The translations under genes were made by a program, and so were the position numbers. DNA of 64,000 bases from an uncultured bacterium (GTDB lineage Bacteria; Babelota; Babeliae; Babelales; Babelaceae), in assembly GCA_963819815.1 (NCBI GenBank), contig CAWFXL010000001.1, positions 1,024,001-1,088,000 on the forward strand, in the 5' to 3' direction. The notes beneath the pieces were generated by a model that was not told the origin of the DNA, did no database searches, and was given only the letters and a program-made list of their open reading frames with translations. This document shows, in pieces, positions 18,237-57,625 of the stretch. Every line of letters begins with the position of its first letter. Positions within the stretch are counted from its first letter, which is position 1.

Positions 18237-18854
18237 TTATGAAAGTGGTAAAACTTCTTCTTTTTGCTTTTGAACAGTCAACTTAAACTCGGTTGGTTGT
18301 ACTTCACCTTTGAGGGTACTCACCTCAACTGCAGTACTAAATACCTCGGCAAGTGTTGCTGATTGAGAAGTATAGAAGGTTCGGTCCTGCTGTTTAGCAT
18401 CTTGGACCTTCTTATCAGCTTTCTCTTCTTTCTTAAGCTCTATACGGGATGTTAGTTGAAACTCCACTGGGCTTATAAAAAACTCAATACGCCCATCTTT
18501 TAGCGTAATTGTTCCAAGCCAACCAGTATCTTTTTTTACGACTTTTACCTCATCTTTTGATAACCCGGTAAACCCTTTAAAGGTAATCGCTACTGACGAA
18601 TCATCCTCTTTAATCTCATGGGTAATCTTCGAAAGGTCTTCACGAGCTTTTTTAAAGGCCTCATTTACTTCTTTTGATGGCCCAAATGACTCAAAACGAC
18701 TTGCAAAGCCATCCATCATCCTTTGATGAGAAGCCATAATAGAATCTATCCATGATCCACTAAAGGGATCATCTATCAAGATATATCGTGCCTGTATCGG
18801 AACAGAAAGACATGATGTTACAGCAAATAATACTATAAGGGATTGTTTGTTCAT
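18237..18854 (-). CDS. Exported protein, divergent small heat-shock (alpha-crystallin)-like
   Basis: SD AAGGAG; signal peptide MNKQSLIVLFAV; DDPF..RMMDGF N-arm; EIKEDD..GLSKDEVKV resembles Hsp20 strands. Confidence 0.5.
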   Translation of the reverse strand: MNKQSLIVLFAVTSCLSVPIQARYILIDDPFSGSWIDSIMASHQRMMDGFASRFESFGPSKEVNEAFKKAREDLSKITHEIKEDDSSVAITFKGFTGLSKDEVKVVKKDTGWLGTITLKDGRIEFFISPVEFQLTSRIELKKEEKADKKVQDAKQQDRTFYTSQSATLAEVFSTAVEVSTLKGEVQPTEFKLTVQKQKEEVLPLS

Positions 18855-19049
18855 AATGAACTCCTTTATGTAATAGATGGTTGTACAAATCACTTCGGTA
18901 CTTAAAACCAGTATACACCCAAGTGAATGGTAAATGCAAGAGCATAGTATGAGCATAGATGCTCCTTAAAAACAGTTCACCCCTTGAGCCACGCTCCCAA
19001 GTAGTTTATACTCAAGGAGTTAAAGAACTTTGATAACCACGGATCGGCA

Positions 19050-20414
19050 ATGAAAAAACTACTCCTCAGTTCCCTGGTACTTATCTCCTTGGTTTTCATT
19101 GGAGGTGGCTTCAGCGTAGCCCAGGCAGCAGCCGTCGCTCCTAAACCTACGTTGCTCACAAAAGAGCTTCTTGGATATATTGAACCCCAAGAATACTTGC
19201 GCACTCCGCGCACAGCAAATCCATCACAGGCCGCAAGCAGCCCAGGAAACACACACCAAACTTCCCTTATCCAGCTTCCCGTGCTTGACCAAAATAAAGA
19301 ACCTGAGAAGAAGGGTAGCACAAAGAATAGTTCCGCTTACCATGCTTTGCGCAATGGAGTTATTCTCCTAAAGGCTCTGATAGATCCTTTAGATTATCGT
19401 AGCGTCGAAGGACTTGTAAAACTGTATGATAAAGAAGACCTATATAAAAAACTTTCCTATGAAGGTTCATGGCGAAATACCATTCGAAGCAAGCGTCATG
19501 GAAACTTTACCGATAGCCTCAGTCTTAAAGAGCTCGAAGTCCTCATAGCTGAAGAAAATAAGACTGGAGACCTTGCAGGAACAAATCTCCCTTGTGCCTA
19601 TTTTGAGTATGCAAATACGGATGAACCTACTGAAAGAGACTTTGAAGTGTTTAATGTAAGTGAAAACCTCAAAAAGATTAAAGCAAAACTTACTGCTGAT
19701 GAAGATTTTGCTGCTCTTATACTGGTGTATGTCGATACACACACGGCAAATAATCCCATCTTTGAAAAAAAACCTGTGAAGTGCACAGTAGAAGGTCCAG
19801 ACTGCACAGGGAGAGCGTTAAAAAAAACTCCCTGCTGTGGAAATTCGCTCTGTAATCCATGTTGGGGCACATCTCTTGCAGATAATCTGAGCGCCTGCCC
19901 CATGTGCAAATCTAGAAACCCAGGACCGCTCGAAGAAGAGATCACAAAGTTAGCAACAAATAAGCCACTAACTGGACAATTCGTTGCTCTTGTACTTGCC
20001 AAAGTACAGGACAAAAGGCAGTACTTTCTAATGGATTCAGCAAATGAAAAGCATCGTTTTACTACAAATAAGCCGATCAAAAAACTTCTTCAATACCTTG
20101 AAGATCCCAATGACCCCCAGGAAACAGATGCAGGCCTCTTGGAGCTTCCTCGCTTTATTCCTGATCCAAGGCGTGTAAAAGACGCCCGCATAGACGATCT
20201 CGTGGAAGCCTTTAAAGACTATAAAGACTCTTATAACCCAGTACCCCAAAAAGCTCCTGCAGCCCTTCAAAACCAGACCGATACATCATATTCCAAAGCA
20301 AAAGGCTTCATTGGTGGCGTCCTTGGAATTTGTGCCCTCTATGCCTGCCTTACGTATTACCAACGCTCTCAAAAACCAAACTCGCCGCAAGCAACCACTC
20401 CAACGGTACAGTGA
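19050..20414 (+). CDS. Exported RING-finger protein with C-terminal membrane anchor
   Basis: Signal peptide; C-x6-C..PCCGNSLCNPC..CPMC; C-terminal TM GFIGGVLGICALYACL. Confidence 0.75.
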   Translation: MKKLLLSSLVLISLVFIGGGFSVAQAAAVAPKPTLLTKELLGYIEPQEYLRTPRTANPSQAASSPGNTHQTSLIQLPVLDQNKEPEKKGSTKNSSAYHALRNGVILLKALIDPLDYRSVEGLVKLYDKEDLYKKLSYEGSWRNTIRSKRHGNFTDSLSLKELEVLIAEENKTGDLAGTNLPCAYFEYANTDEPTERDFEVFNVSENLKKIKAKLTADEDFAALILVYVDTHTANNPIFEKKPVKCTVEGPDCTGRALKKTPCCGNSLCNPCWGTSLADNLSACPMCKSRNPGPLEEEITKLATNKPLTGQFVALVLAKVQDKRQYFLMDSANEKHRFTTNKPIKKLLQYLEDPNDPQETDAGLLELPRFIPDPRRVKDARIDDLVEAFKDYKDSYNPVPQKAPAALQNQTDTSYSKAKGFIGGVLGICALYACLTYYQRSQKPNSPQATTPTVQ

Positions 20415-20507
20415 AATTGTTAATGGGGTGAAGACTTTGATAAATTACTCGATCCTCTGTATGCTACATAAAACTATGAGCACACACATCACTACTATAG
20501 TAAAGAA

Positions 20508-35990: not shown

Positions 35991-36249
35991 GCGCACGGTT
36001 TCGTATACAGCTCTTCACTGAAGTCTGATTTGTAGAAAATACGGTCATGGTAATAAGATAAAATAGTACGTAGTATGCTATGTTTTGCTTTGCTAATGAT
36101 GATATCGAAGCAATAAAGCTTACTTTTATTGCGCACAAATGGCTTGTTGTTGGAAAAAAGAAGAGCTAAAGGAATTGGTCAACAAGATTTCATTGAAAGT
36201 CCTTCAGTTAAAGAGTCTTGTATAAGAAAAAAATGGGCAGAGCTCCTAA

Positions 36250-36490
36250 GAAAACGATTGATATCTTTCTGCCTTCAAAGCCTGCTTTTTCAGAAGCATG
36301 AACCATCTGCCTTTATGTCGAATAGTTCGATCTCCGATTGTTTTTTAATACAAAAGATTGAGTTAAGATTACATCCCTCAATCGAACGATGAAGGTAGCA
36401 TCTTTCAATGGCTCTACATTAAATTTTTCATTATAGTGCTTGGTGTACTAGCTTTGTAGGAAGTAATTAGCTTCTTCAATTGTAGTAAAA
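36250..36490 (-). mobile_element. ISNCY (IS1202-like) transposase remnant
   Basis: Broken frames TTIEEANYFLQS..HYNEKFNVEP..HRSIEGCNLNSIFCIK..RTIRHKGRWF; homologous to 45960-46131. Confidence 0.7.
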
Positions 36491-36655
36491 GAAAAGGGGT
36501 CTTTGTTCATAGTCAGGGAGGACATTTCTTTTGCGTTCCGACAATTATTTTTGCAACCATTGCTTTTTCTTTAAAATTATAAGTAAGATGAGGGTAAGAG
36601 GTCGAGCAAGCTTTTCAAGATCGAAAGGCATCAAAAATCACTAGGAGGGAAATTT

Positions 36656-37417
36656 ATGAAAAACAAAATAGTTTTATATTCTAAGCATTTAACAAAGATA
36701 CTAGCCAGTTCTTTATTGCTACTTCTAGTATGCACCGTCCAACTGACATTTAGTTCAATCGTTGACAGTAAAGCAGCTGATGAAAAATTACGAGAAATTC
36801 ATTCAAAATTAAGTATAAAGCATGGGGACTTTTCCTTGGAATATGACGAACAAAAGATGAACGTCATGTTTCTCCCAAAGGATGCGAAAGTTTTAGAAAT
36901 AGGAGGAAATATTGGCAGAGTCAGTTGTGTCACTGCCTCCATTCTAACTCACCAAGATAACTTGGTTACTTTGGAATCCCATCCGGTGTACGCGAAACAA
37001 TTGCAAGAAAATAGGGATCTTAACGGATTAAACTTCCATATTGAAGCATCTGCGCTATCAAAAGTGCCTTTAATCCAAGCGGGTTGGAATTCAATGCCAA
37101 GCGAAGTTTTATTGCCGGGCTACATTTGGGTCAAAACAATATCATTTGCTGAGCTGCAAAAGAAATACAACATCGAATTTGATACATTGGTGGCTGATTG
37201 TGAAGGTGCACTATATTACATTCTTCGAGATGATCCAGATATCCTTAAAAATATTAAATTAATCCTTATCGAAAACGACTTCCTAGAGCAAGAACATTTA
37301 GATTTTGTTCATAATCTATTCAGACAAAATGGATTTGAGGCTGTATATAGCCAGAGGTGTGAATGGTGTCGTATGTTCCCTAGTTTTGAATATTTCTTTC
37401 AAGTATGGAAGAGATAA
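36656..37417 (+). CDS. FkbM-like methyltransferase with N-terminal hydrophobic segment
   Basis: VLEIGGNIG, LVTLES, LVADCEGA, LIEND. Confidence 0.82.
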   Translation: MKNKIVLYSKHLTKILASSLLLLLVCTVQLTFSSIVDSKAADEKLREIHSKLSIKHGDFSLEYDEQKMNVMFLPKDAKVLEIGGNIGRVSCVTASILTHQDNLVTLESHPVYAKQLQENRDLNGLNFHIEASALSKVPLIQAGWNSMPSEVLLPGYIWVKTISFAELQKKYNIEFDTLVADCEGALYYILRDDPDILKNIKLILIENDFLEQEHLDFVHNLFRQNGFEAVYSQRCEWCRMFPSFEYFFQVWKR

Positions 37418-37489
37418 GCATTAACACCCGCTCTCTATAAGATTTTGTAAAGGCTTTGCGGTCAGGCATTCAACTTTGTCGATTAGCAC

Positions 37490-37519
37490 GAGGTAGCTCA
37501 CAATGGGCTACCTCTTTTT
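37490..37519. terminator. Intrinsic terminator, counterpart of 29756-29792
   Basis: GAGGTAGC..GCTACCTC followed by T5. Confidence 0.7.
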
Positions 37520-37537
37520 ATTGGAATTTAGAAAGAA

Positions 37538-38071
37538 TCAATTAGGAAAAAGCTGCTCTATCATCTGAACTGCCTCGCTGGTCAAATTCTCAACAAGAGC
37601 AGGGTTCTCAAAGCGCTCCAGGACATAGTGTAAAACCTGTTCTCTGGCAACCGGCCGACCAATGCCAAACCTCAGCCGAGCAAATTCAGAAGTACCCCAT
37701 CGCTCAATAAGGGACTTAAGGCCATTGTGACCTCGTGCACTCCCTCCCGTCTTAATAGAAAGCTTTCCAAGAGGTTTTTCAAGCTCATCATGAATAACAA
37801 GAATATTCTGTGGCCCAATCCCCTTTTTCTTTAAAAAAGGCACGACATCGCCAGAGTTATTCATATACGTAAGGGGCTTTACAAGGAGTACCGGATGACC
37901 TTGAATCTGTATGGTAGCAATCTGCGTATCGGGGAAAGATTGCCAGTGGCCGCCAAATGAAGCGGCCACTGAATCTATAACTTTGAAGCCAGCATTGTGT
38001 CGGGTTTCAGCATATTTCGCATCGGGATTACCAAGTCCAATAAGAACTTTTGGCACCTGAATTTCAGTCAT
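37538..38071 (-). CDS. pth: Peptidyl-tRNA hydrolase, copy 2
   Basis: All Pth motifs intact; close paralog of 29826-30356. Confidence 0.93.
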   Translation of the reverse strand: MTEIQVPKVLIGLGNPDAKYAETRHNAGFKVIDSVAASFGGHWQSFPDTQIATIQIQGHPVLLVKPLTYMNNSGDVVPFLKKKGIGPQNILVIHDELEKPLGKLSIKTGGSARGHNGLKSLIERWGTSEFARLRFGIGRPVAREQVLHYVLERFENPALVENLTSEAVQMIEQLFPN

Positions 38072-38075
38072 CTTC

Positions 38076-38110
38076 TTATTTTGAAGCTGGCCTTTTTTAT
38101 CTTTACGGTA
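38076..38110 (-). pseudogene. 3' tip of a duplicated OmpH/Skp gene
   Basis: TTATTTTGAAGCTGG..TTTTTATCTTTACGGTA matches 30361-30396. Confidence 0.75.
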
Positions 38111-38124
38111 CGTAGTTAGAGTTC

Positions 38125-39083
38125 GGCGATGTCAATAATGAAATGCAACACATAGGATTTTCACATAGAAAAGATGCATTTTGAAGGCTCCAATATATTC
38201 ATTCATGCATCATCTCCTTAAAAGCCTCTGAAGCCATTTTATAATTTAGGATTGCTCTTGGCATATTGTTAAGCTTTTGAGCAGCCTCTTCAATATCTTT
38301 CTCGTTGATCTGATCATGTCTACCTTTAAGGGAAAGAAATGTCTGATAAGGCCATTGACGTTCTCTATGCTACCCTTTTGCCATGGCGCTCCTGAGTCAC
38401 AGAAATAAGTTGCTATGCCCAGTTCATTCAATAGCTCATGATCAGCAAATTCGCTACCATTGTCAAAGGTTAAACTTTTAACAGGAAGATCTGATTCTTT
38501 AATTGTATGAATCAGCCCCCATATAACAACATTAGTTGTTTTATTTGGATTCTTGGAGTTTTATCAGCTTTCCTCCTCAGACCTCTTTTTTTATGAGATC
38601 TGAGCAAGAATTTATTTAAATTGAGTCCTTTCCCTTCACTACTATAGATCCATTGATAAATAGCTTCTGCCGATATTCTTAGCCCAGAACTCTTATTATT
38701 CCGTGCTCCAGATATTGTTTGAGAAGACCAACCAATTTTAAGATGTTCAACAATATAAGCTTTCAATGCAGGATCCTTCTTAACTTTTGGCATGTTCTTA
38801 TGCTTGCGCTTAGCGGTTCTTTCTTGAGCTTCACCAGAGTATAAATAGCCTATGTGATCACTGTTTCTAGCTATCTCTCTTGAGATTGTAGATGGTGCTC
38901 GACCAAGTTCAACAGCTATTTGCCGTATCGGCTTTTGTCTACAGAGGGCTCTATAAATATGACATCTTTCATAGTACGATAGCTGAGTAAAGTTTTCCAT
39001 AATTTGCAACACTCTTTCGGTATAGAATATGACGCAAATATCATTCTATCTGAAAAGTGTTGCATTTCATATTAGACTAGGCC
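38125..39083 (-). mobile_element. IS30-family element, internally deleted
   Basis: 27-bp imperfect terminal inverted repeats sharing ATGAAATGCAACAC; TTC on both flanks; HTH GRAPSTISREI in 38512-39012; TFDNGSEF..PWQKGSIENVNGLIR in the 3' fragment. Confidence 0.92.
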
Positions 39084-39109
39084 TTCACATCAAAGATTCC
39101 AGAGCCTCA

Positions 39110-40204
39110 TTACTTGTTACAGCTTTTAATATCAAATAAAAGCCCCTTCACATATTCGGGGTCTAGAATAATTATTTTTGCTTCTTTATCTTCTATCCCG
39201 ACACCTATTAATAAATTTTCACCAGAATGATCGAAGGTCATTGACGTACAAAATTCAACACCGACGTGGGTAAAAGTAAAGGGAAGGGAAATTTTTGTTA
39301 TGCGAAATTCTGCGTCCAGATACAAGAATCTGTGGGTATAGCTATAATTTTGAACACGCTCATGAACCACCATTAGGTATCCATTATCAAAGTCTATGGG
39401 CGCCGCAGACCCACGAGAATAAGAAAAGTCTAATTTAGGCGAATAGCTAAGAACTGTCTTGAATGTTCCATTTTCCATGTTTGGCTCTATGAGTATAAAG
39501 GGATCATATGAGTAAATAAACCTGAGCTTTTCCTGCCTAACAATGGGCATCCAATTCTTTTCGTGGCGTCTTTCTTCTGGTCCATGAAAAAGTGCTAATG
39601 TTTCAATCGTTGGTCGGGGAAAATGATCAAAAGAATTAAGTTCGCAACTAAGCCTACATACCGCTACTTTTTGTAACCAATTAGAGGATTTGATGGCTGA
39701 GCATCCCACTAACCAGTGGGAATTATCCCAATAGAATATTCTGCCATCTTCCACTTGGTAAGCTTCGTTTATATTTTTTGTAAGATGAGATGGTATCGTT
39801 ATTTCTTGCTCAGATAGGAGGTTAAAATCTTTATCATACCTGAGAAAAAAGTTCCTGATTTTCGGGGTATCTCCACTTACTATTGTACGATAATCAGGAA
39901 TCTTAAGATTTGTAACTTTGCACATAATATCATAGCCATTTGCCGTTTTTATGATCGATGGATTAAGTGGTACATAAGTTTCACTATGGCCTTCCTTAAT
40001 TAGTGGCAAGGTAAAAGTAACATCTATAATCTCTTTAGATTCTAGGTTCCTTAGTAAAGCTAGCATAGGTTGAATATATTTTTCTTTATCAGCTTTCGAA
40101 ATGCTTTTGCTTAATATAAGTTGATCAAGTTCCCTTAGAGATTCTTTTTGAGAGAATATTAAAGAACTACATAATAACTGTATGAGCATCAATAGATACA
40201 ACAT
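39110..40204 (-). CDS. Exported beta-propeller glycoside hydrolase/phosphorylase-like protein (GH130-like)
   Basis: Signal peptide; LNPSI, VEDGRIF, EKNWMP, RGSA, YTHRF, VEFC, GIEDKEA. Confidence 0.7.
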   Translation of the reverse strand: MLYLLMLIQLLCSSLIFSQKESLRELDQLILSKSISKADKEKYIQPMLALLRNLESKEIIDVTFTLPLIKEGHSETYVPLNPSIIKTANGYDIMCKVTNLKIPDYRTIVSGDTPKIRNFFLRYDKDFNLLSEQEITIPSHLTKNINEAYQVEDGRIFYWDNSHWLVGCSAIKSSNWLQKVAVCRLSCELNSFDHFPRPTIETLALFHGPEERRHEKNWMPIVRQEKLRFIYSYDPFILIEPNMENGTFKTVLSYSPKLDFSYSRGSAAPIDFDNGYLMVVHERVQNYSYTHRFLYLDAEFRITKISLPFTFTHVGVEFCTSMTFDHSGENLLIGVGIEDKEAKIIILDPEYVKGLLFDIKSCNK

Positions 40205-40406
40205 GACCTCTCCCTTTTTATATTTTCCGCCCATATGCTTATTATAAAATACTTAGATAGATATTTGCAATAATTTTCTAATGAAGATAAAAGCTCACAT
40301 TGAGCACTAACATTTATTCATCTAAATTATAGACTTATCGATATTAAATTTAGTAATTTTAAAATATATGACTACTATCACTAATTTTTCAAGAAGGAGG
40401 GGTTCA

Positions 40407-41291
40407 ATGTTTTCACTATCAAAATCTTATCGATTTCTTTATCTGAGTATGGCCATATTGAGTTCGCTTTCACAGGCTGAAGAAAGTCAATTGAATATGA
40501 CCGTAACTCACCCTATCGAATTTGTAATTTTGATCGCATCATACAATAATGAGCAATTTGCTGTTGAGAATCTGCGATCTGCTTGTTTCCAAAAATCATC
40601 AAGACCTTACGAGGTTATCTATGTGAATGATTGTTCTACTGATAATACTCATGCAGTCGTAGAAGCCTACGTTAAAGAACATGGACTTGAAAACCGAGTA
40701 ACCATTATTAATAACGAAATAAATGTTGGCCAAGTTGGAAACTATTACAATATCATACATAGCTTCATACCTGACCATAAAATTGTTGTTTTACTTGATG
40801 GTGATGATAAATTAGCCCATGATGAGGTATTGTCTGTTCTTGAAAAACACTATTCAAACCCAAATACATGGATGACCCATGGATCACGCATAATATTTCC
40901 TGAACAAGGTATGGATAATGTTCCTGAGTCCCAACCATATCCAAGTGATGTAATTTTGGAGAGATTATTTAGAAAAAGTGAATGGGTAAAAGGAGCTCAT
41001 TTAATATCTTTCAAAGCTTGTTTATACAAAAAGATTCGAAAAGAAGATCTCATGTATCAAGGGAAATTCTTAAAAGTGGCGGGCGATGTGGCATTTCTAA
41101 TGCCTATATTTGAAATGTGCTCGCCCTACAAAGGCAATAAAAAAAGCCACATTCAATTTATTCCAGAGGTTCTCTATCTCTATCGAGTAAATAATCCCAT
41201 AAGTGACTTTAGAATATATAAAGGTGCACAGAGTGAAATGAACGGGTATATAAGAGGCTTGCAACCCTATGAAAGCCTAGAATCACTGTAA
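40407..41291 (+). CDS. GT2 glycosyltransferase (paralog 2)
   Basis: Signal peptide ending SQA; FVILIASYNNE, NDCSTD, LDGDD, GDVAF. Confidence 0.9.
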   Translation: MFSLSKSYRFLYLSMAILSSLSQAEESQLNMTVTHPIEFVILIASYNNEQFAVENLRSACFQKSSRPYEVIYVNDCSTDNTHAVVEAYVKEHGLENRVTIINNEINVGQVGNYYNIIHSFIPDHKIVVLLDGDDKLAHDEVLSVLEKHYSNPNTWMTHGSRIIFPEQGMDNVPESQPYPSDVILERLFRKSEWVKGAHLISFKACLYKKIRKEDLMYQGKFLKVAGDVAFLMPIFEMCSPYKGNKKSHIQFIPEVLYLYRVNNPISDFRIYKGAQSEMNGYIRGLQPYESLESL

Positions 41292-41310
41292 ATGGCAATT
41301 CGTCAGCTAC

Positions 41311-41365
41311 TGCACGTTGTGGCAATTTTTTTGAAAAAAAATAAAAAAAATTGCCACAACGTGCA
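41311..41365. repeat. 22-bp perfect inverted repeat
   Basis: TGCACGTTGTGGCAATTTTTTT / AAAAAAATTGCCACAACGTGCA. Confidence 0.9.
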
Positions 41366-41449
41366 CTGCCAAAAATCGTTTACTTTTTTCTAAAAGACCG
41401 AAAAGCCTATTTAAGTGAGTAGTTGGGTTGTAATTTAGAGACAAGGCAT

Positions 41450-41551
41450 TTTGGAAATAGACTAAATGCACATTAATTAGAGGTAAGTGCACGCTCTTTT
41501 CAGTAAAAGTTGCTCATTGGGGTCTGAGTCTAAAGTAGCCTAAAAATTTGC
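41450..41551 (+). repeat. Degenerate dispersed repeat, copy A (copy B at 42905-43019)
   Basis: Shared AGACTAAATGCACA..CTCTTTTCAGTAA..TGCTCA..CTAAAGT. Confidence 0.75.
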
Positions 41552-41642
41552 TCTAACAATATTAAACTCTTGAAATTTAATCATTGTTTTTGCTAACATG
41601 AAGTTAGAAGCTTTTTTATTATATAAAACAGGGAGAACAATT

Positions 41643-42353
41643 ATGATTTATATCTACTTATTACTGAGCTGTTTTTTGGGAAATCTCACTGGACAGATTT
41701 TTTGCGAACGGGGAAAGCTTGAAACTAATGATAGTAAGATGGAAGAGATTTTTACCGAAGTTTACGAAAAAAATACATGGTGGAGCTCTGAATCAAGATC
41801 TGGTACGGGATCAACTTTAGCAAATACCGTATTTCTTAGAGAAGAGCTTGTGCAGCTTCTTTCTACCTTTCAAGTTTCGTCAATGCTTGATATTCCCTGT
41901 GGTGATTTCAATTGGATGAAAGCTGTAGACTTAAAAAGTTTGAAGTATATCGGTGCTGACCTGGTAAAACAAATAGTTATCGAAAACAATATAAGATTCC
42001 AGACAGATACAATAAAGTTTATGCACTTGAATGCATGTAAGGATACTCTACCAAGAGTTGATCTTATTTTTTGTAGAGACATGCTGCAGCATATGTCTTT
42101 AAAAGATATAAAGCTTGCACTTGCCAATTTTAAGAAGAGTGGTTCAAAATATTTATTAACCTCAACTTTTCCGCATGTAGACCTCTGGTATGATCTTGAA
42201 ACTGGGTTCGATTGCAGAGAAATAAATTTCCGAAATTCTCCATTCAATTTTCCAGCACCTCTTTACCTTATAGTTGAGAATAGCATTGATGTTCGCGGAA
42301 AATGTATGGGACTCTGGTTGCTGAAAGACATTCCTGATGAAGCTTTGTCGTGA
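41643..42353 (+). CDS. Class I SAM methyltransferase with signal-like N-terminus
   Basis: ESRSGTGS, LDIPCGDFNWM, YIGAD, CRDMLQH. Confidence 0.85.
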   Translation: MIYIYLLLSCFLGNLTGQIFCERGKLETNDSKMEEIFTEVYEKNTWWSSESRSGTGSTLANTVFLREELVQLLSTFQVSSMLDIPCGDFNWMKAVDLKSLKYIGADLVKQIVIENNIRFQTDTIKFMHLNACKDTLPRVDLIFCRDMLQHMSLKDIKLALANFKKSGSKYLLTSTFPHVDLWYDLETGFDCREINFRNSPFNFPAPLYLIVENSIDVRGKCMGLWLLKDIPDEALS

Positions 42354-42429
42354 AACTTCAAGGTCCCTTGTAGCTTTATCTATCAGCTCCTTTGCTTAAG
42401 AAATACAAGCATGCTTTTTTCAGACTTAC

Positions 42430-42755
42430 ATCAACCCATCATTTAAGACGGCAGAACTATTACAGAAAAAGTTTCTGAATGATATGGGCATTAAGAAATA
42501 TACGGCAGCTCATCATAAAGCGGGTTTTAACCTGTTAGATTTGGAAGGCATTAACATCGATGTTATTCTGCTTTCTCAATTTCACCCGGAACAAGAGTTT
42601 ACGAACCAAATGCCCTCACTGCTAAACCATGAGAATTGTAGACATCTTGAATCAGTTCTTCAGCTTGAGTAATCTCGTTTGTTTGGCCAGAACTTGCAGT
42701 GGTTTTCCAACAGCATATAATATGCTGCATGTGTTTTCGTTGAATACCCACACTA
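42430..42755 (-). mobile_element. Heavily degraded IS5-family transposase remnant
   Basis: Frameshifted GYSTKTHAA, AVGKPL, GQTNEITQAEELI, FCRLK segments; limits approximate. Confidence 0.6.
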
Positions 42756-42904
42756 AATACAACATTTTTCTACTAGCAATCCAATCTACATTATGATAAC
42801 TATGCACAATAATCTCTTCTGCACGTATTTCAAGAGACACATTGAAATGTTTATTACTTTTACTTAACCCCCGTAAAGCTCAAAGCTATTCTATAAACAT
42901 AACG

Positions 42905-43019
42905 TTTTGGCAACAGACTAAATGCACACTCATTAGTGTGGGCATATACTCTTTTCAGTAAGAACTGCTCACTTGGGCCTGATTCTAAAGTGAGAGCTCA
43001 GATAGCCTTACCTTTTTGC
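42905..43019 (+). repeat. Degenerate dispersed repeat, copy B
   Basis: Homologous to 41450-41551 with a short insertion. Confidence 0.75.
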
Positions 43020-43075
43020 ATCTTAATTTAAAACAAAGTCTTGCTTGGATTGCTTGTACAATTTGCAAATTGGTT

Positions 43076-44338
43076 CTATTTCACAATATCACAATATTTA
43101 TCGTAGAGCTCTTTTGAATTCGTCATCAGATAGTTCTCACCAATAATATTCTCAGGCCCGAGAATAACTTTTTTAGGAATCACCAACATGTGAAACTTAT
43201 TTTTCAAGTCCTTCCACAGATATCTTTTTACCCATTCTCTTCCCTGCTCCGCACTTTTCTTATACTCAGAATAATTAGAGTAGACTTTCCTTAGTTCTTT
43301 GCGGACATCCTCAATACTACAGTGAAAATTGTAACCGCAATCTCCAAAATCAAGACTCCCATACGTAGCTTTGTTTGGTATATTAGAGCAAACGCCAGAC
43401 ACATAACCACTATTGCAAATAGTAGCATGTGCAGTATTATTACTAATGATTGTAGGGATACCAAGAGCCAGGGCTTCGCGTGGAGTAATTGAAAATCCTT
43501 CACCCTTTGAGACAAGAACATAGCAATCAAAGCTTTTCATTAATTCTATGTACTTTTCATGCGAAAGTGACTTATTGCTAAGTATTATTGAAGGTATCGA
43601 ATTAGGTTCAACCTTACTCTTTACTGCTTCAAAATAGTAGCCCCCGTTGCCATGGAGAACCAACTCCACACTATCATCCCCAGCAAATTCAGCAAGAAAA
43701 GCATCTATTAATAAATGATGGTTCTTTCTATCTATAAATGTGCTACAGCATCCAAATCTAAATGGTTTATTTGGGGCTTTTTTGATCGGTTGTTGGAGAA
43801 AATCTTCGAGATAAATTCCGTGTGGTAAAACAAAAATCGGTATTGTAACGCCACTCATTACATAAGTCTCAACGAGCCATTCATCAGGTACGATCACTGC
43901 ATCAAAGTTCTCATTAAAATTGGCAACCCATTTTTTTGGTATTCGTGTGCTCTCTAACATTGAGTAAGCAAGTTTAATATGGCTTTTTATAGCATTTACT
44001 TCATCATAGCTGCTCCAGGCAAGGTACCAATACAAAAGTGCTACATTACCAGCTGTTATATCATCATTTTGTCTCCCAAGGTCAAAATGATTGATTTTAA
44101 GATCATTTTTTAAGATATCTGCAATCCCAATGCCTATGCTTCCTAGTCCAGTATCAGATTGTGCTACCCCTATTAACGATAGATCAATAGGTGACGGCGT
44201 AAATGATTTAACTTGGCCAAGTTCACGTTTATTGTTTGGCACCATGAATTTCTGCCCTTTTCTATCACCTTCCTCACAAGATATTTCGTGGGTAGATACC
44301 AGCAATAAACAACCAATTAGCATTCTGCAAAACAGCAT
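43076..44338 (-). CDS. GT4 (GT-B) glycosyltransferase with signal-like N-terminus
   Basis: YSMLESTRIP, RKNH, SKGEGFSITPREALALG; tandem paralog of 44402-45679. Confidence 0.88.
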   Translation of the reverse strand: MLFCRMLIGCLLLVSTHEISCEEGDRKGQKFMVPNNKRELGQVKSFTPSPIDLSLIGVAQSDTGLGSIGIGIADILKNDLKINHFDLGRQNDDITAGNVALLYWYLAWSSYDEVNAIKSHIKLAYSMLESTRIPKKWVANFNENFDAVIVPDEWLVETYVMSGVTIPIFVLPHGIYLEDFLQQPIKKAPNKPFRFGCCSTFIDRKNHHLLIDAFLAEFAGDDSVELVLHGNGGYYFEAVKSKVEPNSIPSIILSNKSLSHEKYIELMKSFDCYVLVSKGEGFSITPREALALGIPTIISNNTAHATICNSGYVSGVCSNIPNKATYGSLDFGDCGYNFHCSIEDVRKELRKVYSNYSEYKKSAEQGREWVKRYLWKDLKNKFHMLVIPKKVILGPENIIGENYLMTNSKELYDKYCDIVK

Positions 44339-44401
44339 GATTAATCCTTCCTTTCTTAAGAGTCTTGGTTAAGACTTCATTTTTCAAACCTAAAAATAGC
44401 T

Positions 44402-45679
44402 CTAAACCTCATGTCCCATAGATGCAATGTTGCAATATTTATTATAAAGCTCTCTAGAATTAGTCATCAAAAAATCTTCTCCAATAATATTTTCGTTTCC
44501 AAGGATAACCTCTTTAGGTTTCACCAACATGAGAAACTTGTTTTTCATGTTTTCCCAAGTATATTGTTTTACCCACTCTCTTCCCTCTACCGCAATTTTT
44601 TTGTGCTCAGCGTAATTAGAATAGACTTTCCTCAGTTCTTTACGAACGGCAGCAATATTACAATTAAAGTTGTCACCGCAATCTCCGAGATTATACGAGG
44701 AGGGATACTCAGCTTTATTCCGTATATTTGAGGGAACTCCAAATACATATCCACTATTACAAATTGTAATGTGTCCAGTATTATTACTAAGGATCGTAGG
44801 AGTTCCTAGTGCGAGCTCCTGACGAGGCGTAATTGAATACCCTTCCCCCTTTGAGAGAAGGACATAACAATCAATACTTTTCATAAACTCTATATACTCC
44901 TTACGTGTTAGCGTATTATGATTACTAATTTTTATTGATGGCACCGAAGATGCCTTAACCTTTCGTAGGGTCTCTTCAAGGTATTTTCCACCACCATCGC
45001 CATGAAGCACTAACTCAACGTTATGGTCTCCGGCAAATTCAGCTTGGAATGCATCAATTAATAGATGCTGATTCTTTCTATCGCAAAATGTAGCACATGA
45101 ACCAAATCTAAATGGCTTTGCATGAGTCGCCCTAATAGGCTCATTTAGAAAATCTTCGAGATAAATTCCATGGGGTAGTACAAAAATCGGTACAGTTACT
45201 CCACATGTTAAATATACATCCTTAAGCCACTCATCAGGTATGATCACAGCATCAAAGTTCTTATTGAAATTATTTACCCACATTTCAGGTATTTTTGTAC
45301 TCTCTAACATAGAATAAGCAAGTCTAACATAACTTTTTACAGAGTTTACCCTATTGCATTCTTCGACGTTGTATATTGGAAAATAAAGCAAAGCTACATT
45401 ACCTGGGGTTTTATCAGTATTTTGTAATATTTCTACTATATTTGATGGGATATTGTCATAAATAAAAATTCGGCCTATGTGCGAATAGTAATTGATTTTT
45501 ATATCATCTTTCAATACATCTATAATCCCTACCCCTATGCTTCCTAACCCAGTATTAGACTCCGCCAGTCCAATCAATGTTAAATCAATAGGAGAAGGTA
45601 CAAACGCATGTATTGGAAATGATAGGATAATAAAATAGTGCACCTTATTAATGCCCCGAAGGAACCGGTGGAATAACAT
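44402..45679 (-). CDS. GT4 (GT-B) glycosyltransferase
   Basis: YSMLESTKIP, RKNQ, SKGEGYSITPRQELALG. Confidence 0.88.
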   Translation of the reverse strand: MLFHRFLRGINKVHYFIILSFPIHAFVPSPIDLTLIGLAESNTGLGSIGVGIIDVLKDDIKINYYSHIGRIFIYDNIPSNIVEILQNTDKTPGNVALLYFPIYNVEECNRVNSVKSYVRLAYSMLESTKIPEMWVNNFNKNFDAVIIPDEWLKDVYLTCGVTVPIFVLPHGIYLEDFLNEPIRATHAKPFRFGSCATFCDRKNQHLLIDAFQAEFAGDHNVELVLHGDGGGKYLEETLRKVKASSVPSIKISNHNTLTRKEYIEFMKSIDCYVLLSKGEGYSITPRQELALGTPTILSNNTGHITICNSGYVFGVPSNIRNKAEYPSSYNLGDCGDNFNCNIAAVRKELRKVYSNYAEHKKIAVEGREWVKQYTWENMKNKFLMLVKPKEVILGNENIIGEDFLMTNSRELYNKYCNIASMGHEV

Positions 45680-45959
45680 TCACTCTCCCATGAATATTGG
45701 TTGCTGCCGTATTTAGACCCAGTTATATACAATTAAGGACTCCGACAATAAACTACTATCTATTTGTCTTTCTAAATACTAATAATAATAAGATTATAAA
45801 TGCAAGAGTTTCATACATCTCTGTCGGAACGCAATTAGAATGTCCTCTTTTTTTAAGTTTGTATTCTGGTTTCTCTATTTCTACGTAGTTAAGTCATTGG
45901 TTGCCTACCTCAAGTGATATTGTCCCATCGAATGCTATGCTTATCGAGATAGAAGATCC

Positions 45960-46131
45960 CTTCTGTAGCTCTTTTTTCATAAGCAAGAACCATGTGCCCA
46001 TATAGCGAATAGTTCGACTTCCGTTTATTTTACGTTTTCTTTAATACGAAAGATGGAGTTAAGATTAATTCCTTCAATGGAGCGATGAGGGTTAACATTT
46101 TCAATGGCACTACAGTGAATTTTTCATTATA
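45960..46131 (-). mobile_element. Second ISNCY (IS1202-like) transposase remnant
   Basis: Nucleotide homology to 36270-36436; YNEKF..HRSIEGINLNSIFRIK. Confidence 0.65.
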
Positions 46132-50917: not shown

Positions 50918-52213
50918 TTATGACGAAGATGAAGAAGTTGGTGTTGTTGTTGCAGTCTTTTTCATCGAATCGATAAACTCATCGTTCGTCTTAAACTTCT
51001 TAATCTTATCGATCAGAAACTCCATACCTTCTACCGTGTTCATACCACTCAGGAACTTACGAAGAATCCAGATCTTATTAAGCTGATCTTCATCCATAAG
51101 AAGATCTTCGCGACGGGTTCCTGATTGCAAGAGATCAAAGGCAGGAAATGTACGTCGGTTAGAAAGCTTACGACTCAGATGCATCTCCATATTACCAGTT
51201 CCCTTAAACTCTTCATAAATAACCTCGTCCATACGTGAACCGGTTTCTACAAGAGCAGTACCTATGATCGTTAACGACCCAGCTTCTTCAGTCTTACGAG
51301 CAGCACCAAAGAAACGTTTAGGATGTTGTAAGGCTGTCGCATCAATACCACCGGTAAGCACCTTCCCTGAAGCAGGGGCTACGGTATTATAGGCACGAGC
51401 AAGCCTCGTAATCGAATCAAGAAGAACGACAACATCATACCCCACCTCAACCAAGCGCCGTGCTTTTTCTATGACAATTTCGGCAACTTGCACATGGCGC
51501 TCTGCAGGTTCATCGAACGTTGAGCTAATAACCTGAGCATGGTTCATGCCAACCACCGCATATTTCATCTCGGTGACCTCTTCAGGACGCTCATCGACAA
51601 GCAGCACAATGATATATGTCTCAGGATTATTTGCAGCTATTGCCTGGGTAAGCTCCTTTAGAAGAACCGTTTTACCGGTCTTTGGTGGTGCAACGATTAA
51701 ACCACGTTGCCCTTTACCTATAGGGGTAAACAGATCCATAATTCTTGTTGATATCGCGGTCGGATTGTGTTCAAGAGTAAATTTCTGAGTAGGATGATGA
51801 GGAGTTAAGCGCTCAAAGAAAGCTCTATCTATAAGAACTGAAGGATCCTTATAGTTCACTAAATCAACTTTAAGCAATGCAAAATACTTTTCACCCTCTT
51901 TTGGCTTTCTGATGACTCCTGAAATAGTATCCCCTGTTCTGAGCCCAAAACGTCTAATCTGAGAAGGTGATACGTAGATGTCATCAGGACCTGACACGTA
52001 GTCGAACTTCGCTGAACGTAAGAAACCAAAACCATCGGGTAATTTTTCAAGAACCCCTTCAACCGGTATTTCTTTATCTGGATTTTCTTTAAGGTCGATA
52101 ATATTTTTTATAAGATCTGGCTTCGACATGAGGGAAGAACCCACTACGCCAACTTTACGAGCTTGGATCAATAGCTCAGCTAATGGTAGCTTTTTTAATT
52201 CTTGATCTTTCAT
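50918..52213 (-). CDS. rho: Transcription termination factor Rho
   Basis: [49 protein letters not shown]. Confidence 0.98.
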
Positions 52214-52413
52214 AGAACCTGTAACTCCTTTCCCATCCGGGATAAGTAACTCTATAAGAGTAATTGTGATTTTTTTAGAAAATAGATACGTATTTCGTTA
52301 GTAGTAATTGGGGAGCAAACTAGGAAAAGTCTGCAATCTTTTTAGTATTAAGCCTCACAGCCTACAAGGGTAGAAGCAAAATAACTGTTTGTTGTGCTTT
52401 CAAGTACCAGTAA

Positions 52414-53355
52414 TTATGCACTCTTTTTAGGGTATAACATATAAAGAACCGGCGTTGCAATAAATATTGTAGAATAAATTCCAAATATTATACCGATAAA
52501 GAGTGCAAGGGACAGATCTCGCAGCGTTTCACCGCCAAAAACTAAAAGCGAGACAACCACTAAAAGGGTTGCAAATGTCGTAAGCAACGTACGGCTTAAG
52601 GTCTCAGTAATACTTATATTAATGACATCATAGATTGATCGATTTGCCAAGAGCTTAACATTTTCACGAACACGAGCAAAAATCACAATCGTGTCATTCA
52701 CCGAATAGCCAAGCACCGCTAAAATCGCACCGATAACGTTCATAGAGATCTCTTTATCAAAAATAAGGAAAAAGGCTAATATCGCAATCGCATCATGGAA
52801 TAATGAAACAATAGCTCCCATGGCATAGGCAAAAGACCAGAACCTTATGGCAATATAGAGAAGCATAAGAATCAAACTCACTAAAATTGCATAGATAGAG
52901 TTAGTACGCATCATCGATCCAGTTGCCATCCCAACGCTGTCAGTTTGCTCAATGGTAACGGTATACTCAGATCCAAGACCTTTTTGCACCGCTTCACGAA
53001 TAAGCTCAGCTTCCTTAGAAACATCCTTTGCTTCTTTTTTTACGCGCACTAAATGCTCCGTAGCAGAGAACTCGCGCGTCACACTACCGGGCCATCCAGC
53101 TTTTTCTAAGATCGCCACTACCTTTTCACTTTCTACAGGCTTATTAAAGGCAAGCAACGTTTGAATACCCCCCGTAAAATCGACACTGTAATTAAAAGTA
53201 TGACCATCTGGGTTCGTAAAGCGCTTATACAGATAAGTTCCAAAGAAAGATGCTAATAAAAGACCTGATACAATAGCAGAAACATACTGAAGTTTAAGGA
53301 AATCTATCGGATTATTAATAGCCTCAGATTTATGGTAACGGAAAAAATTAAACAT
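52414..53355 (-). CDS. secF: Protein translocase subunit SecF
   Basis: VDFTGG, HD, GYSVNDTIVIFARVREN, TLSRT. Confidence 0.95.
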   Translation of the reverse strand: MFNFFRYHKSEAINNPIDFLKLQYVSAIVSGLLLASFFGTYLYKRFTNPDGHTFNYSVDFTGGIQTLLAFNKPVESEKVVAILEKAGWPGSVTREFSATEHLVRVKKEAKDVSKEAELIREAVQKGLGSEYTVTIEQTDSVGMATGSMMRTNSIYAILVSLILMLLYIAIRFWSFAYAMGAIVSLFHDAIAILAFFLIFDKEISMNVIGAILAVLGYSVNDTIVIFARVRENVKLLANRSIYDVINISITETLSRTLLTTFATLLVVVSLLVFGGETLRDLSLALFIGIIFGIYSTIFIATPVLYMLYPKKSA

Positions 53356-53419
53356 AAGTACTCTACCCTTGCCAAAATGCGCTCAAAACCTATATAACTC
53401 GATCACTATAACTAAATTC

Positions 53420-53677
53420 TTAGGAAGCTGCAAGCACAGAAACGTACTTACGACCTTTTGGACCATAATGAAACTTTACTTTACCTGATCCAATAGCATA
53501 AATAGTGTGATCGGTTCCCAATCCTACGTTATTACCAGGATGAATACGTGTGCCGCGCTGGCGAATAATGATCTCGCCGCCCGAAACAACTTCGCCGTCA
53601 AACAATTTAACGCCTAGCCTTCTGCCTCTACTATCTCTACCATTGGAGGTCGATCCACCCGACTTACTGGTTGCCAT
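53420..53677 (-). CDS. rpmA: 50S ribosomal protein L27
   Basis: [30 protein letters not shown]. Confidence 0.97.
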
Positions 53678-53764
53678 CGTAATCCTTTACTCAGTGATAT
53701 CATTCAATTGTTTTTTACCTTGGAAGATAGCCCTAGAATTAGGGCATTTTTGTCTATGGGATTG

Positions 53765-53793
53765 AGTATGCCTTTTTTTTAGCCTTCTGTCAA
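53765..53793 (-). promoter_or_regulatory. Promoter for rpmA-secF
   Basis: TTGACA-17 bp (containing A8)-CATACT. Confidence 0.6.
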
Positions 53794-53888
53794 AACTTTA
53801 TAAAACAAAGAACGATAAATTATTGCAAAAATGAATTGGGGTGGTTTATTATTAAAGCAAGAACAACAAGTTGAACTAGGTGGGACAT

Positions 53889-54485
53889 ATGTTTTTTTTA
53901 TTATTATTGATACAACTATTATGTAGCTCAATGATGTTCGCTCATCAACAATCATTGGAGGAGCTGGACCAACTTTTATTGAGCAAAAGTATCCCTCAAG
54001 CTGATAAGACAAAATATATTGAACCTATGCTATCTTTCGTAAAAAGCCTTGAACATAAAGATGCTATAGATATTACCTTTACCTTACCACTAATAAGGGA
54101 AGGGCATAGCGACACTTTTCTGCCCCTTAATCCATCTATCATAAAAACTGATGGCGGCTATGATATTATTTGTAAGACTACAAATCTTAAGTGTCCTGGT
54201 TATCAGCCAATTATACCTGGAGAAACTCCTAGTATCAGGAATTTTTTCCTCAGGTATGATAAAAATTTTAACCTCTTAAATGAGCAAAAAATGCACATCC
54301 CATCTCATCTTACAGTAAATATAAACGATGCTTGGCAAGTAGAAGATTGCAGAACATTCCATTGGAATGAATCCTACTGGCTCATAGGATGCGCACTTAT
54401 TAAACCTCGTTTGCCCAAAGTAGCTATGCAAATAGTATATCAACCTACTAAACATAGAGCATTTGGCGAAAAAACAAACGCTTGA
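53889..54485 (+). pseudogene. C-terminally truncated paralog of the 39110-40204 propeller protein
   Basis: Similar through LNPSI and VEDCR; homology ends near KVA and the EKNW half is missing. Confidence 0.75.
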
Positions 54486-54548
54486 TGGCTGTTATTTCTT
54501 TTTTGGAATTAATTTAAACAACTAAACCAAAAAGAGGGGGAACGAATC

Positions 54549-55391
54549 ATGCTGTTAAGATCAGTTTCATGGACATTGCTCGCAATGGGCAGTTTATTTA
54601 CTATGATGGAAACCGAGGCTAATCCGACTAAATTCGTAATACTTATAACATCATACAACAATGAAAAATTTGCAGAAGATAACTTACGGTCAGCCTGCTT
54701 TCAAAAGTCTACATATCCCTACAGGATCATATATGTCAATGATGCTTCTACTGATAGAACCAAGGAAATTGTAGAAAACTTTAGAACCGAACAGAATCTT
54801 TCACACGTGCTTACTGTAATAAACAATGCTACAAATATGAGTGGGATAATGAACTACTATAATGTCATTCATGGGTATATTGATGACGAAGAGATAGTCG
54901 TAAATCTCGACGGAGATGATATTTTAGAAGACAATGTCTTATTAACCTTAGAAAGGTATTATAGTAATCCAGATGTATGGCTAACATATGGATCAGCGCG
55001 CTTCTATCCTGGAGGAGAATTGATACGCAACATGTCCTCCGAATATCCTGAGCATATAATAAAAGAAATGAAATTTAGAGAATACGACTTTTTTGCCCAG
55101 CACTTAAGAACATTTAAAGCCTGGCTATTCAAGAGGTTAAATAAAGACGACTTTTATTATAATGGTCTTCCCATAACTGGAGCACCTGATATGGCCTTTA
55201 TGATCCCTATGCTGGAGATGTGCTGTCCTTATGGTGAAGGAGGGATTAATCATTCAACATTTGTTCCAGAAGTCCTATATAATTATCGAACAACAAACCC
55301 TTTAAGCCAACATATACTTAATCTTCAACGACAAAAAAATGAAGATGATTTCATCCGGTCAAAGAAGCCATATCAACCAATATGTCGATAG
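54549..55391 (+). CDS. GT2 glycosyltransferase (paralog 3)
   Basis: Signal peptide ending TEA; FVILITSYNNE, NDASTD, LDGDD, HLRTFK, DMAF. Confidence 0.9.
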   Translation: MLLRSVSWTLLAMGSLFTMMETEANPTKFVILITSYNNEKFAEDNLRSACFQKSTYPYRIIYVNDASTDRTKEIVENFRTEQNLSHVLTVINNATNMSGIMNYYNVIHGYIDDEEIVVNLDGDDILEDNVLLTLERYYSNPDVWLTYGSARFYPGGELIRNMSSEYPEHIIKEMKFREYDFFAQHLRTFKAWLFKRLNKDDFYYNGLPITGAPDMAFMIPMLEMCCPYGEGGINHSTFVPEVLYNYRTTNPLSQHILNLQRQKNEDDFIRSKKPYQPICR

Positions 55392-55943
55392 CATTTAGAT
55401 GACTAAATAAATGAAAATATCATCGTACCCGCAATATATATCATAAAATGTTGCCCGGGCACGAATGATATTTTTTGGGTTTTGATTCCAGTGGTCTTTA
55501 TTGAGGGTGAGGTTTAGGTTTTCTGGGCTTAGGGGGGTAAGCCTTTCATATACTGTAAACAATTAAGTTTTGGAAAAGGCATAAATAAATAATAAGGCCA
55601 CATCTCAAATAAAGCATACCTTCCTATATGCAGGTATAGTCTGAGCAACAGAACCCAAGAATTTCAGAAAACGCTATCTCATACTACAAGCAGAAGTAGA
55701 CCAATTAAAGCAACTTTTGTAATACTTATGCAGAAATCCACGAGATACTTGGTACATGATTTGAAAAGCAGAAACATAAAAATAGATTAAATCTTCAGCT
55801 AACTCAGAATACAATGATCTCTAACGGCCTGACATTCTTTCGGCATACTATTGGTTTTGTTTAAATTTAAATACTACCTTAAAATTAAATTACACTTGTC
55901 GATGACCGGCTCTGAAGAAGATCCATAACATGGGAGTCCTTAT

Positions 55944-56000
55944 ATGATACCAAAAATAGCCTTTCTGTTCCTTACAGTTGGGAATGTTTTCCATGAAGGT
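55944..56000 (+). pseudogene. N-terminal remnant of a Core-2/I-branching-like glycosyltransferase
   Basis: SD GGGAG, then MIPKIAFLFLTVGNVFHE, interrupted next to the IS1595 remnant. Confidence 0.45.
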
Positions 56001-56014
56001 CAAGCCTATGGACA

Positions 56015-56165
56015 CTATCGTAATTCTTTTGGTGTTCCAAAATTAAACCTCCATTCGCACTCTTTTATGTACAAATAAAATTGCTTTTGTGGTACACCAT
56101 AAAACGTCTTAAATGCCTTTTGGCTTAGTTCCAAAAATTTTCGATTCCATTGATGTGGTTCTCTT
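56015..56165 (-). mobile_element. IS1595-family transposase C-terminal remnant
   Basis: NHINGIENFWN*AKRHLRRF then shifted GVPQKQFYLYIKECEWRFN. Confidence 0.8.
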
Positions 56166-56245
56166 ACAAACCCAAAAAAATGCTGCGCTTTCTGGCATTC
56201 AAATTACCAAATTACGGCAAGTTATCATGTACTCCATAAGCTTGG

Positions 56246-57250: not shown

Positions 57251-57625
57251 GAATACTCTTCTCTCTTTTGGCACAGGCAATTAGGTAAAAAGTGTTAGCA
57301 CTATTAAAATTTTATTAATAATAGCACTAAAAAGTCAAGGTTAATCCTTCGAACCTCTGCACACACTAGAAATAGCGTTATAGAACGCAACTCCCATTGA
57401 AGCATTTCTTGAAAACAAGCTTGCTCATACTATCACCTTATTATGCAACATGAGCGCTCGCTGATTGATAATATTAAAGCTTTTTCAAGATCATTCTGTT
57501 TAACTGAAGGAAGCGAAATACGAGTCACATTAACAAATTTATAACAAACTCTTGTATTTTCAAAAATCTGCATGCTAGTATTGTGGCGATCTAAAAAAAG
57601 TATCGTACAAAAAAGGGAGATCCAA

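Follow-up and report, generated by a model that had tools for sequence, protein, structure and literature searches.

A RING-like insert within an apparently inactive papain-like domain of a candidate membrane-anchored effector from an uncultured Babelaceae bacterium

In A20, among ubiquitin editors of the A20/TNFAIP3 type, the zinc finger with ubiquitin ligase (E3) activity lies outside the OTU deubiquitinase domain. Proteins such as FAM105A (6drm) are pseudo-deubiquitinases. Here we describe a bacterial gene that shows no sequence relationship to either kind and differs from A20 in its layout. It lies in a window of 64,000 nucleotides (the whole stretch of DNA that was analysed) from an uncultured member of the Babelaceae whose hosts are protists, and the open reading frame (ORF) list of this window places a 454-amino acid ORF at exactly 19050..20414 on the plus strand. 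Its predicted product, hereafter the query, carries a RING-like finger that would interrupt a papain-like protease fold devoid of its catalytic Cys and His, and, in contrast to A20, it is a bacterial protein with a putative signal peptide and a putative transmembrane anchor (Table 1).

Zinc-binding RING effectors of bacteria are few, the latest addition being SnRING, an atypical one from an intracellular bacterium, and membrane-anchored deubiquitinase effectors are known, of which SnOTU and SnVTD carry predicted transmembrane domains (sections of a 2026 review, PMC13720258). Parts of PMC4378268 report many ubiquitin-related proteins in Babela, including F-box proteins, RING proteins and secreted C19 ubiquitin hydrolases, together with a type II system as its only secretion system. 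Among the coding sequences of Chromulinavorax, 44% have signal peptides, putative effectors included (a passage of PMC6561590). A search of open-access papers and bioRxiv found no description of a RING nested in a protease or deubiquitinase fold.

The original prediction had recognised, on both sides of the RING, motifs recalling a Josephin deubiquitinase with Cys replaced by Ser and His by Gln. These proved to be the motifs of a real protein family. A word-indexed search of 5.8 billion proteins returned four close homologues (88, 86, 70 and 44% identity, the last one N-truncated), and with phmmer run exhaustively over 1.84 billion representatives the number of proteins recovered was 16 at E≤1e-3, falling to 10 at E≤1e-10 and to 7 at E≤1e-30. 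When the single protein was searched against 61 related genomes, weak matches appeared in genomes of the same genus (7/61 at E≤0.01), and these are ORFs with the same two motifs and intact catalytic residues: SCGYHALRN and NGHWFTLVV..YLIADS at locus L004, DCAYHALRN and NGHWVSMVV..YVVADS at L005, SCAYHALRN and NGHWIPLVI..YIVADS at L006, SCLYHACRN and LGHYTGLLV..YISLDS at L003. The original prediction had suggested a search for paralogs with intact Cys and His; intact relatives exist at L003-L006 within the genus, and an intact paralog at L042:1068-2513 within the same genome.

Four alignments were used: the five closest sequences (A1), a profile of 21 members (A2), a narrower alignment (A3), with which a search for related loci gave three, and one of 45 rows (A4). 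At E≤1e-5 the A2 profile finds matches in 51 of the phylum's 261 genomes, spread over 30 of 145 genera and including all nine other genomes of the genus of the query. The family signature is Q..SC.YHALRN ... GHW..LV..Y...DS. Family sequences of known source all come from Candidatus Dependentiae, the phylum whose genomes the profile search covered; we regard them as a putative papain-like cysteine protease family, found here only in this obligately intracellular phylum. Neither Pfam nor NCBIfam has a model for it. The protease part gave only chance-level Pfam rows, whether for the query at E≤10 (RNase_H_2 at E 0.019, Baculo_IE-1 at E 0.062) or for 12 relatives at E≤1, NCBIfam returned nothing useful for five members, and the family profile drew only chance-level rows of unrelated proteins from the sequences of the PDB (best E 0.33).

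Within this family the query has lost its active site. In the 39 rows of A4 that lie outside the clade carrying Ser at the catalytic Cys position, 22 columns are at least 75% conserved, and the query retains 19 of them, the changes being C95S, H310Q and W311F. The column of S95 holds Cys in 37 of the 39 rows and that of Q310 holds His in all 39, so that both substitutions are true losses; the next column, F311 in the query, is Trp in 33/39. Retained residues include Q81, S94, Y97, H98, N102, W141, R142, D329 (Asp in 38/39 rows) and S330 (Ser in 39/39). From the catalytic triad the query keeps D329 alone, whereas its family relatives have all three members. Because S95 and Q310 replace the nucleophile and the general base, the protein cannot be a cysteine protease, and the domain is dead, as the original prediction had supposed. 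The gene itself does not look abandoned. Against the orthologue in a second genome (G001), which shares S95 and Q310, the pairwise ratio of nonsynonymous to synonymous substitution rates (dN/dS) is 0.24 overall and 0.20, 0.16 and 0.14 in the N lobe, the RING and the C core, values that show continued purifying selection as far as this one sequence pair can tell. Active residues are lost and the remaining predicted fold is under selection, which is the pattern of a pseudoenzyme with fold and groove kept and not that of a decaying gene.

The second component, the insert of 45 residues, follows the strand '..LILVYVDTH' and precedes the His strand (by alignment and by model strands 220-227 and 311-319), in a loop that varies in length across the family. 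Its cysteines are arranged as C245-x6-C252-x9-C262-C263-x4-C268-x2-C271-x11-C283-x2-C286, and all eight are invariant in the five sequences of A1. The best match of the query among solved structures is the RBBP6 RING (3ztg_A, E 0.011, query residues 260-293, along 'PCCGNS.C..C...CP.C'), followed by the RINGs of CNOT4 (third PDB match, E 0.13), RNF125 and RNF168. The RBBP6-type resemblance named in the original prediction is recovered; it is marginal alone, and the RING call is backed by the inserts of relatives. At the same site P0008 carries two RINGs, with zf-C3HC4_3 at 31.2 bits for a cut-off of 27 (E 1.9e-7), and the homologous inserts of P0006 and P0009 reach 20.0 and 19.6 bits with Pfam RING models. 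The first pair is C-x2-C in P0005, P0006, P0008 and P0009 and C-x6-C in the clade of the query, whose spacing otherwise fits C-x2-C...C-C-x4-C-x2-C-x11-C-x2-C. The genome of the query encodes, in addition, a stand-alone RING protein (L043, 414 amino acids as its longest ORF) with the order hydrophobic N-terminal segment (if an internal Met is the start), RING, C-terminal hydrophobic segment. Its RING, 'TPCC.N..C..CW....CP.C[RK]', matches that of the query by BLASTP at E 8e-6 and that of P0008 at 9e-7, and scores 27.1 bits in a six-frame genome search and 23.1 bits in an hmmscan of the whole ORF. Judged on these sequences, the insert is homologous to RING fingers. It shares with the C4C4 RINGs of the RBBP6/CNOT4 type the use of Cys for all eight ligands, and it differs from them and from SnRING in its C-x6-C first pair and in being nested in another domain instead of forming a terminal module. 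We take V247 (two residues after C245), W272 (after C271), and P284 and K287, which flank the last pair, to fit a RING able to activate a ubiquitin-conjugating enzyme (E2).

A maximum-likelihood tree of 22 members (360 kept columns, rooted on the paralog from the same genome) orders these changes. All eight RING-bearing sequences and the RING-less P0007 form a clade of nine rows with a support of 100/100. One of its branches contains P0008 and P0009, with Cys and His intact, and the N-truncated P0005, with His intact; the other is the Ser clade of six rows (87/90; P0007, P0006, P0004, P0003, P0002 and the query), inside which the query, P0002 and P0003 form a Gln clade (93/89). The simplest reading is that the RING was gained once while the active site was intact, that Cys then changed to Ser and later His to Gln, and that P0007 lost the RING secondarily. 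This order holds if the root lies outside the nine-row clade, a placement supported by all 13 RING-less intact rows. Since the three catalytic positions of P0004, P0006 and P0007 are occupied by Ser, His and Asp, formally a serine protease-like triad, one could imagine that the query is still a hydrolase with Ser95 as nucleophile; we find this hardly credible, as the query, like its two nearest relatives, has Gln at the catalytic His position and so lacks a general base there. The intact RING-bearing relatives suggest, by sequence, an ancestral 'editing' enzyme. P0008 (481 amino acids, tandem RINGs) and P0009 (305 amino acids, truncated, one RING) are both of metagenomic origin, and they would be candidate single-chain deubiquitinase/E3 'editing' enzymes, arguably better test subjects than the query.

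The fold was approached with two structure models, one of the query built with A2 (mean predicted local distance difference test, pLDDT, 76.9, with the core mostly above 90) and one of P0010, an intact RING-less member, built with A4 (88.3). A Foldseek search of the PDB gave nothing at E≤0.001 for either model; kinesins, AMPA receptors and BRISC headed the list, and the sole protease-like row was CidB (7fiu, probability 0.97, E 0.066). The features of a papain-like (clan CA) enzyme are found in the family, with the nucleophile at a helix start, the His at a strand start and the acid on the neighbouring strand. In VIA-align, almost every row other than those matching the transmembrane helix is a cysteine protease of papain or adenain fold, most of them deubiquitinases, whose matches cover query residues 70-235. 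The composition of this list and the conserved Gln/Cys/His/Asp pattern support a papain-like, deubiquitinase-like predicted fold, without assignment to Josephin, OTU or any other class.

Several classes can be compared with it. Legionella and Simkania OTU-type deubiquitinases with helical insertions (7bu0, Lpg2529 6yk8, LotA 7f9x, SnOTU 8cmr) gave the highest Z values for the query model (6.4, 6.1, 5.2), and papain-like enzymes that are not deubiquitinases came at a similar level (staphopain C 5.1, cathepsin B 4.4, a C39-like peptidase 4.3), rows within 1 Z unit counting as ties and all values falling in a range common for unrelated pairs. As in the query, a large helical lobe separates the Cys region from the His region in the OTU-type enzymes, and some of these are membrane-anchored effectors; unlike them, the query lacks an OTU Pfam match and the family acid lies on the next strand, as in papain, 19 residues after His. 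An acid on the strand after His is not the OTU arrangement. Bacterial and eukaryotic Josephins are among the nearest known systems (PaJOS 9g7g, BpJOS 9f5t, PcJOS 9fn4, JOSD2 6pgv, ATXN3L 3o65), with the acid also on the next strand, at His+16 in PcJOS, PaJOS and BpJOS (part of 10.1101/2024.07.24.604956) against His+19 here. Neither the query (E≤10) nor any of 12 relatives (E≤1) gave a Josephin match in Pfam. Of the pseudo-deubiquitinase joined to a RING E3 that had been predicted, the pseudo-protease and the RING hold up, and membership of the Josephin family and E3 function are unproven; 'Josephin-like' is a reasonable label, because the order Cys...His...Asp with the acid on the next strand is Josephin- or papain-like rather than OTU-like. 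VTD enzymes were excluded. In excerpts of PMC9741609 they have a D-x-H catalytic motif and no aromatic gatekeeper, a residue described as usual after His in conventional deubiquitinases (part of 10.1101/2024.07.24.604956), whereas the present family has the aromatic residue (Trp in 33/39) and no D-x-H motif, the residue two before His being N, L, H, P, Y, S, D or V among the matches listed. A Foldseek search of the P0010 model against the viral structures of BFVD gave nothing at E≤0.001; weak rows from giant viruses were seen below this level (Hokovirus E 1.8e-3, Hyperionvirus 7.5e-3, Edafosvirus 1.1e-2).

The two ends of the query bear on its location. Hydropathy reveals two hydrophobic segments, residues 1-31 (windows scoring above 1.4 on the Kyte-Doolittle scale) and 416-438, both helical in the predicted structure (3-20; 414-440), and by eye A-Q-A precedes residue 27 as a candidate cleavage site. 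These ends fit the signal peptide and C-terminal transmembrane helix of the original prediction. Crude thresholds for N- and C-terminal hydrophobicity are passed by 35/45 and 17/45 family rows, the latter mostly from the closer subfamily. We propose that the query is a Sec-exported, C-terminally membrane-anchored effector candidate in which groove binding, recruitment of a host E2 and a membrane-anchored E3 role occur together, a joint proposal that we judge to have about an even chance of being right. Its scaffold would come from the phylum-restricted papain-like family, with a layout resembling deubiquitinases (Gln, Cys at a helix start, His-aromatic, Asp); a RING would have entered the loop that precedes the His strand, followed by the change of Cys to Ser and later of His to Gln. 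Once exported by Sec and transferred by some route to the host side, the protein would be anchored in a host-facing membrane by its C-terminal helix. There the dead groove may bind ubiquitin, a ubiquitin-like modifier or a ubiquitinated substrate, a host E2 may be recruited by the RING, and the protein may act as a membrane-anchored E3, or as an E4-like chain extender, on the host or vacuolar membrane. In the genome, four matches to secretins score above cut-off.

The same topology can be read without ubiquitin. It puts the domain outside the bacterial cytoplasm, and the similar Z values of staphopain C, C39-like peptidase and cathepsin B, together with an ESM Atlas feature search whose best score was 0.81 and whose C39 and C58 peptidase clusters are leads only, would suit a family of periplasmic or surface papain-like peptidases, perhaps acting on surface proteins of the bacterium or its host, of which the query is a dead structural variant knotted by its cysteines through zinc or disulfides. 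We think this reading quite unlikely. RING fingers, to which the insert is homologous, belong to the eukaryotic ubiquitin system; the top structural rows are mostly deubiquitinases; and the family conserves an aromatic residue after His. The known-source sequences, moreover, are all from obligately intracellular Dependentiae (no profile search outside the phylum succeeded), where effector candidates with signal peptides are reported to be the rule (a passage of PMC6561590).

The effector proposal has to be weighed against several points. Taken at face value, a signal peptide and a C-terminal transmembrane helix predict a periplasm-facing inner-membrane protein, and an oxidising periplasm might prevent the Cys residues from forming zinc sites. 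The RING of the query falls below the Pfam cut-offs of 27-27.9 (Prok-RING_4 11.3 bits, its best row at E 0.34; zf-C3HC4_2 10.3; zf-RING_5 8.9), the query is absent from the four genome-wide matches to PF13920 at E≤0.01, its first zinc knuckle is degenerate with C-x6-C instead of C-x2-C, and the RING region has a pLDDT of 51-63 in the AlphaFold model. Clustering of S95, Q310 and D329 in space is putative, and the dN/dS ratios come from one pair with 3-21 substitutions per segment.

Such degeneracy is what one would expect if the query were a non-catalytic scaffold or decoy for ubiquitin or E2~ubiquitin, its Cys-rich insert serving as a binding or 'fingers'-like module without ligase activity so that the protein shields, sequesters or reads ubiquitin marks on membranes. 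USP deubiquitinases offer a parallel in the zinc-ribbon 'fingers' insert with which they grip ubiquitin; here the dead domain retains nearly all family-conserved residues and the insert adjoins the substrate-binding face of the His strand. We hold this to be unlikely: the eight Cys and the C-P-x-C-[K/R] ending are retained in the clade of the query, in P0006 and in P0009, inserts homologous to it exceed or come near the cut-offs of Pfam RING models, and selection on the insert (dN/dS 0.16) is as strong as on the core.

A partner for the query might also be sought in its own genome (G000), where just two family members are found at E≤1e-5, one of them intact and the other dead. The intact paralog, found as a profile match at G000:C1:1320184-1321518, is encoded outside the window by an ORF of 481 amino acids with the motifs SCGYHAFRN and NGHWITLVV..YYVLDS. 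Pseudoenzymes are commonly paired with an active paralog, as for BRCC36 with Abraxas/KIAA0157, and both proteins here have a hydrophobic C-terminal segment; the query could then be a pseudoenzyme partner or regulator of the paralog, with the RING as an added recruitment surface. This appears very unlikely to us, since the two genes are about 277 kb apart and the paralog is related so distantly that the profile found it and the single-protein search missed it. The gene that follows the paralog encodes 439 amino acids with an N-terminal hydrophobic segment and resembles, by eye, a WD40-type repeat protein. A distant family member of 336 amino acids in genome G043, with ASCGYHTVKN, has a different Cys-rich stretch matching a loose RING regular expression.

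Table 1. Positions of the gene, its segments and related loci (window positions unless a locus is named).
Feature	Position	Strand	Basis or size
Whole gene: signal-like segment, dead papain-like domain split by the RING insert, linker, C-terminal transmembrane helix (predicted)	19050..20414	+	454 aa + stop
N-terminal hydrophobic signal-peptide-like segment, aa 1-26	19050..19127	+	Kyte-Doolittle, model helix 3-20
N-terminal part of papain-like core and helical lobe, aa 70-235; Q81, S95 (catalytic Cys position, nt 19332-19334), Y97-H98-x-L-R-N motif, W141-R142	19257..19754	+	alignments A2/A4; pLDDT mostly >90
RING-like insert, aa 243-288, eight Cys (245, 252, 262, 263, 268, 271, 283, 286)	19776..19913	+	A1, RBBP6 match
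C-terminal part of papain-like core, aa 296-355; strand opening G309-Q310-F311 (Q310 = catalytic His position, nt 19977-19979), following hairpin ending in D329-S330 (nt 20034-20039)	19935..20114	+	conserved His/D/S columns; model strands 311-319, 322-328
C-terminal transmembrane-like helix, aa 417-437, then 17-residue tail	20298..20360	+	hydropathy; model helix 414-440
Adjoining ORF	18237..18956	-	239 aa
Slot directly upstream of the SpoU gene	20415..20507		same slot in L044-L047
Intact paralog	L042:1068-2513 (G000:C1:1320067-1321512)	+	481 aa
Gene after the intact paralog	L042:2675-3994		439 aa
Distant family member in G043	L029:2225-3232	-	336 aa
Stand-alone RING protein	L043:832-2073	-	414 aa

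The kinds of protein involved, bacterial deubiquitinase-like and RING effectors and pseudo-deubiquitinases, are known; the family on which they are built here is unannotated. It is possible, if doubtful on present evidence, that proteins with the Q..SCxYHALRN / GHW..DS pattern are undescribed, Dependentiae-specific effectors acting as deubiquitinases or proteases of ubiquitin-like modifiers, outside the seven known families of cysteine deubiquitinases, and that living sequences preserve an eraser-to-writer series. Such a series would run from a deubiquitinase through a deubiquitinase with a nested RING (an A20-like bacterial 'ubiquitin editor') and a Ser mutant to a dead pseudo-deubiquitinase, kept in the end because it serves a membrane-anchored RING E3 as its receptor for ubiquitin or substrate. 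If true, it would provide the first RING finger nested inside a deubiquitinase fold and natural intermediates on the way from an enzyme to a binding module of another enzyme, and an unannotated protease class would join the effector repertoire of a widespread and almost uncultured phylum. Active deubiquitinases of undefined linkage preference and combined deubiquitinase/E3 proteins would then be candidate tools. 'Hypothetical' genes of Dependentiae can also be made readable by comparing paralogs within the phylum.

The surroundings of the gene are ordinary. Alanine racemase and the 239-amino acid unknown lie on the minus-strand flank, and the plus-strand flank carries a SpoU methylase, a 250-amino acid ORF without Pfam match that is FtsQ-like judging by its position, FtsA and FtsZ; G001 shares the same gene arrangement. 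What occupies the slot directly upstream of the SpoU gene depends on the species within the genus: the dead RING form in G000 and G001, an intact RING-less family member (P0016) in G003, an AAA_14/DUF4143 ORF in G005, an unknown 396-amino acid ORF in G006, and nothing in G002. A recent horizontal island was considered and rejected, the flanks being housekeeping genes and the GC content unremarkable (0.42-0.43), yet the SpoU slot varies by species.

Some further observations concern other parts of the genome. Four more ORFs matching RING models lie outside the window, near G000:C1 1589213, 1405986, 520799 and 1469145, each with an N-terminal hydrophobic segment by eye (for 1589213 only with an internal Met start). 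One shares its 'TPCC' type of RING with the query and has a hydrophobic segment at the C terminus as well, and another combines, by eye, ankyrin-like repeats, a MYND-like Cys cluster and a RING. The 239-amino acid ORF, which matches nothing in Pfam, contains a signal-like hydrophobic segment in its interior; G001, G002 and G005 keep it beside alanine racemase, at 41-91% identity. Within the window, GC content falls to 0.33-0.39 at about 36000-46000 and 52000-58000, against 0.40-0.45 in most of the remainder.

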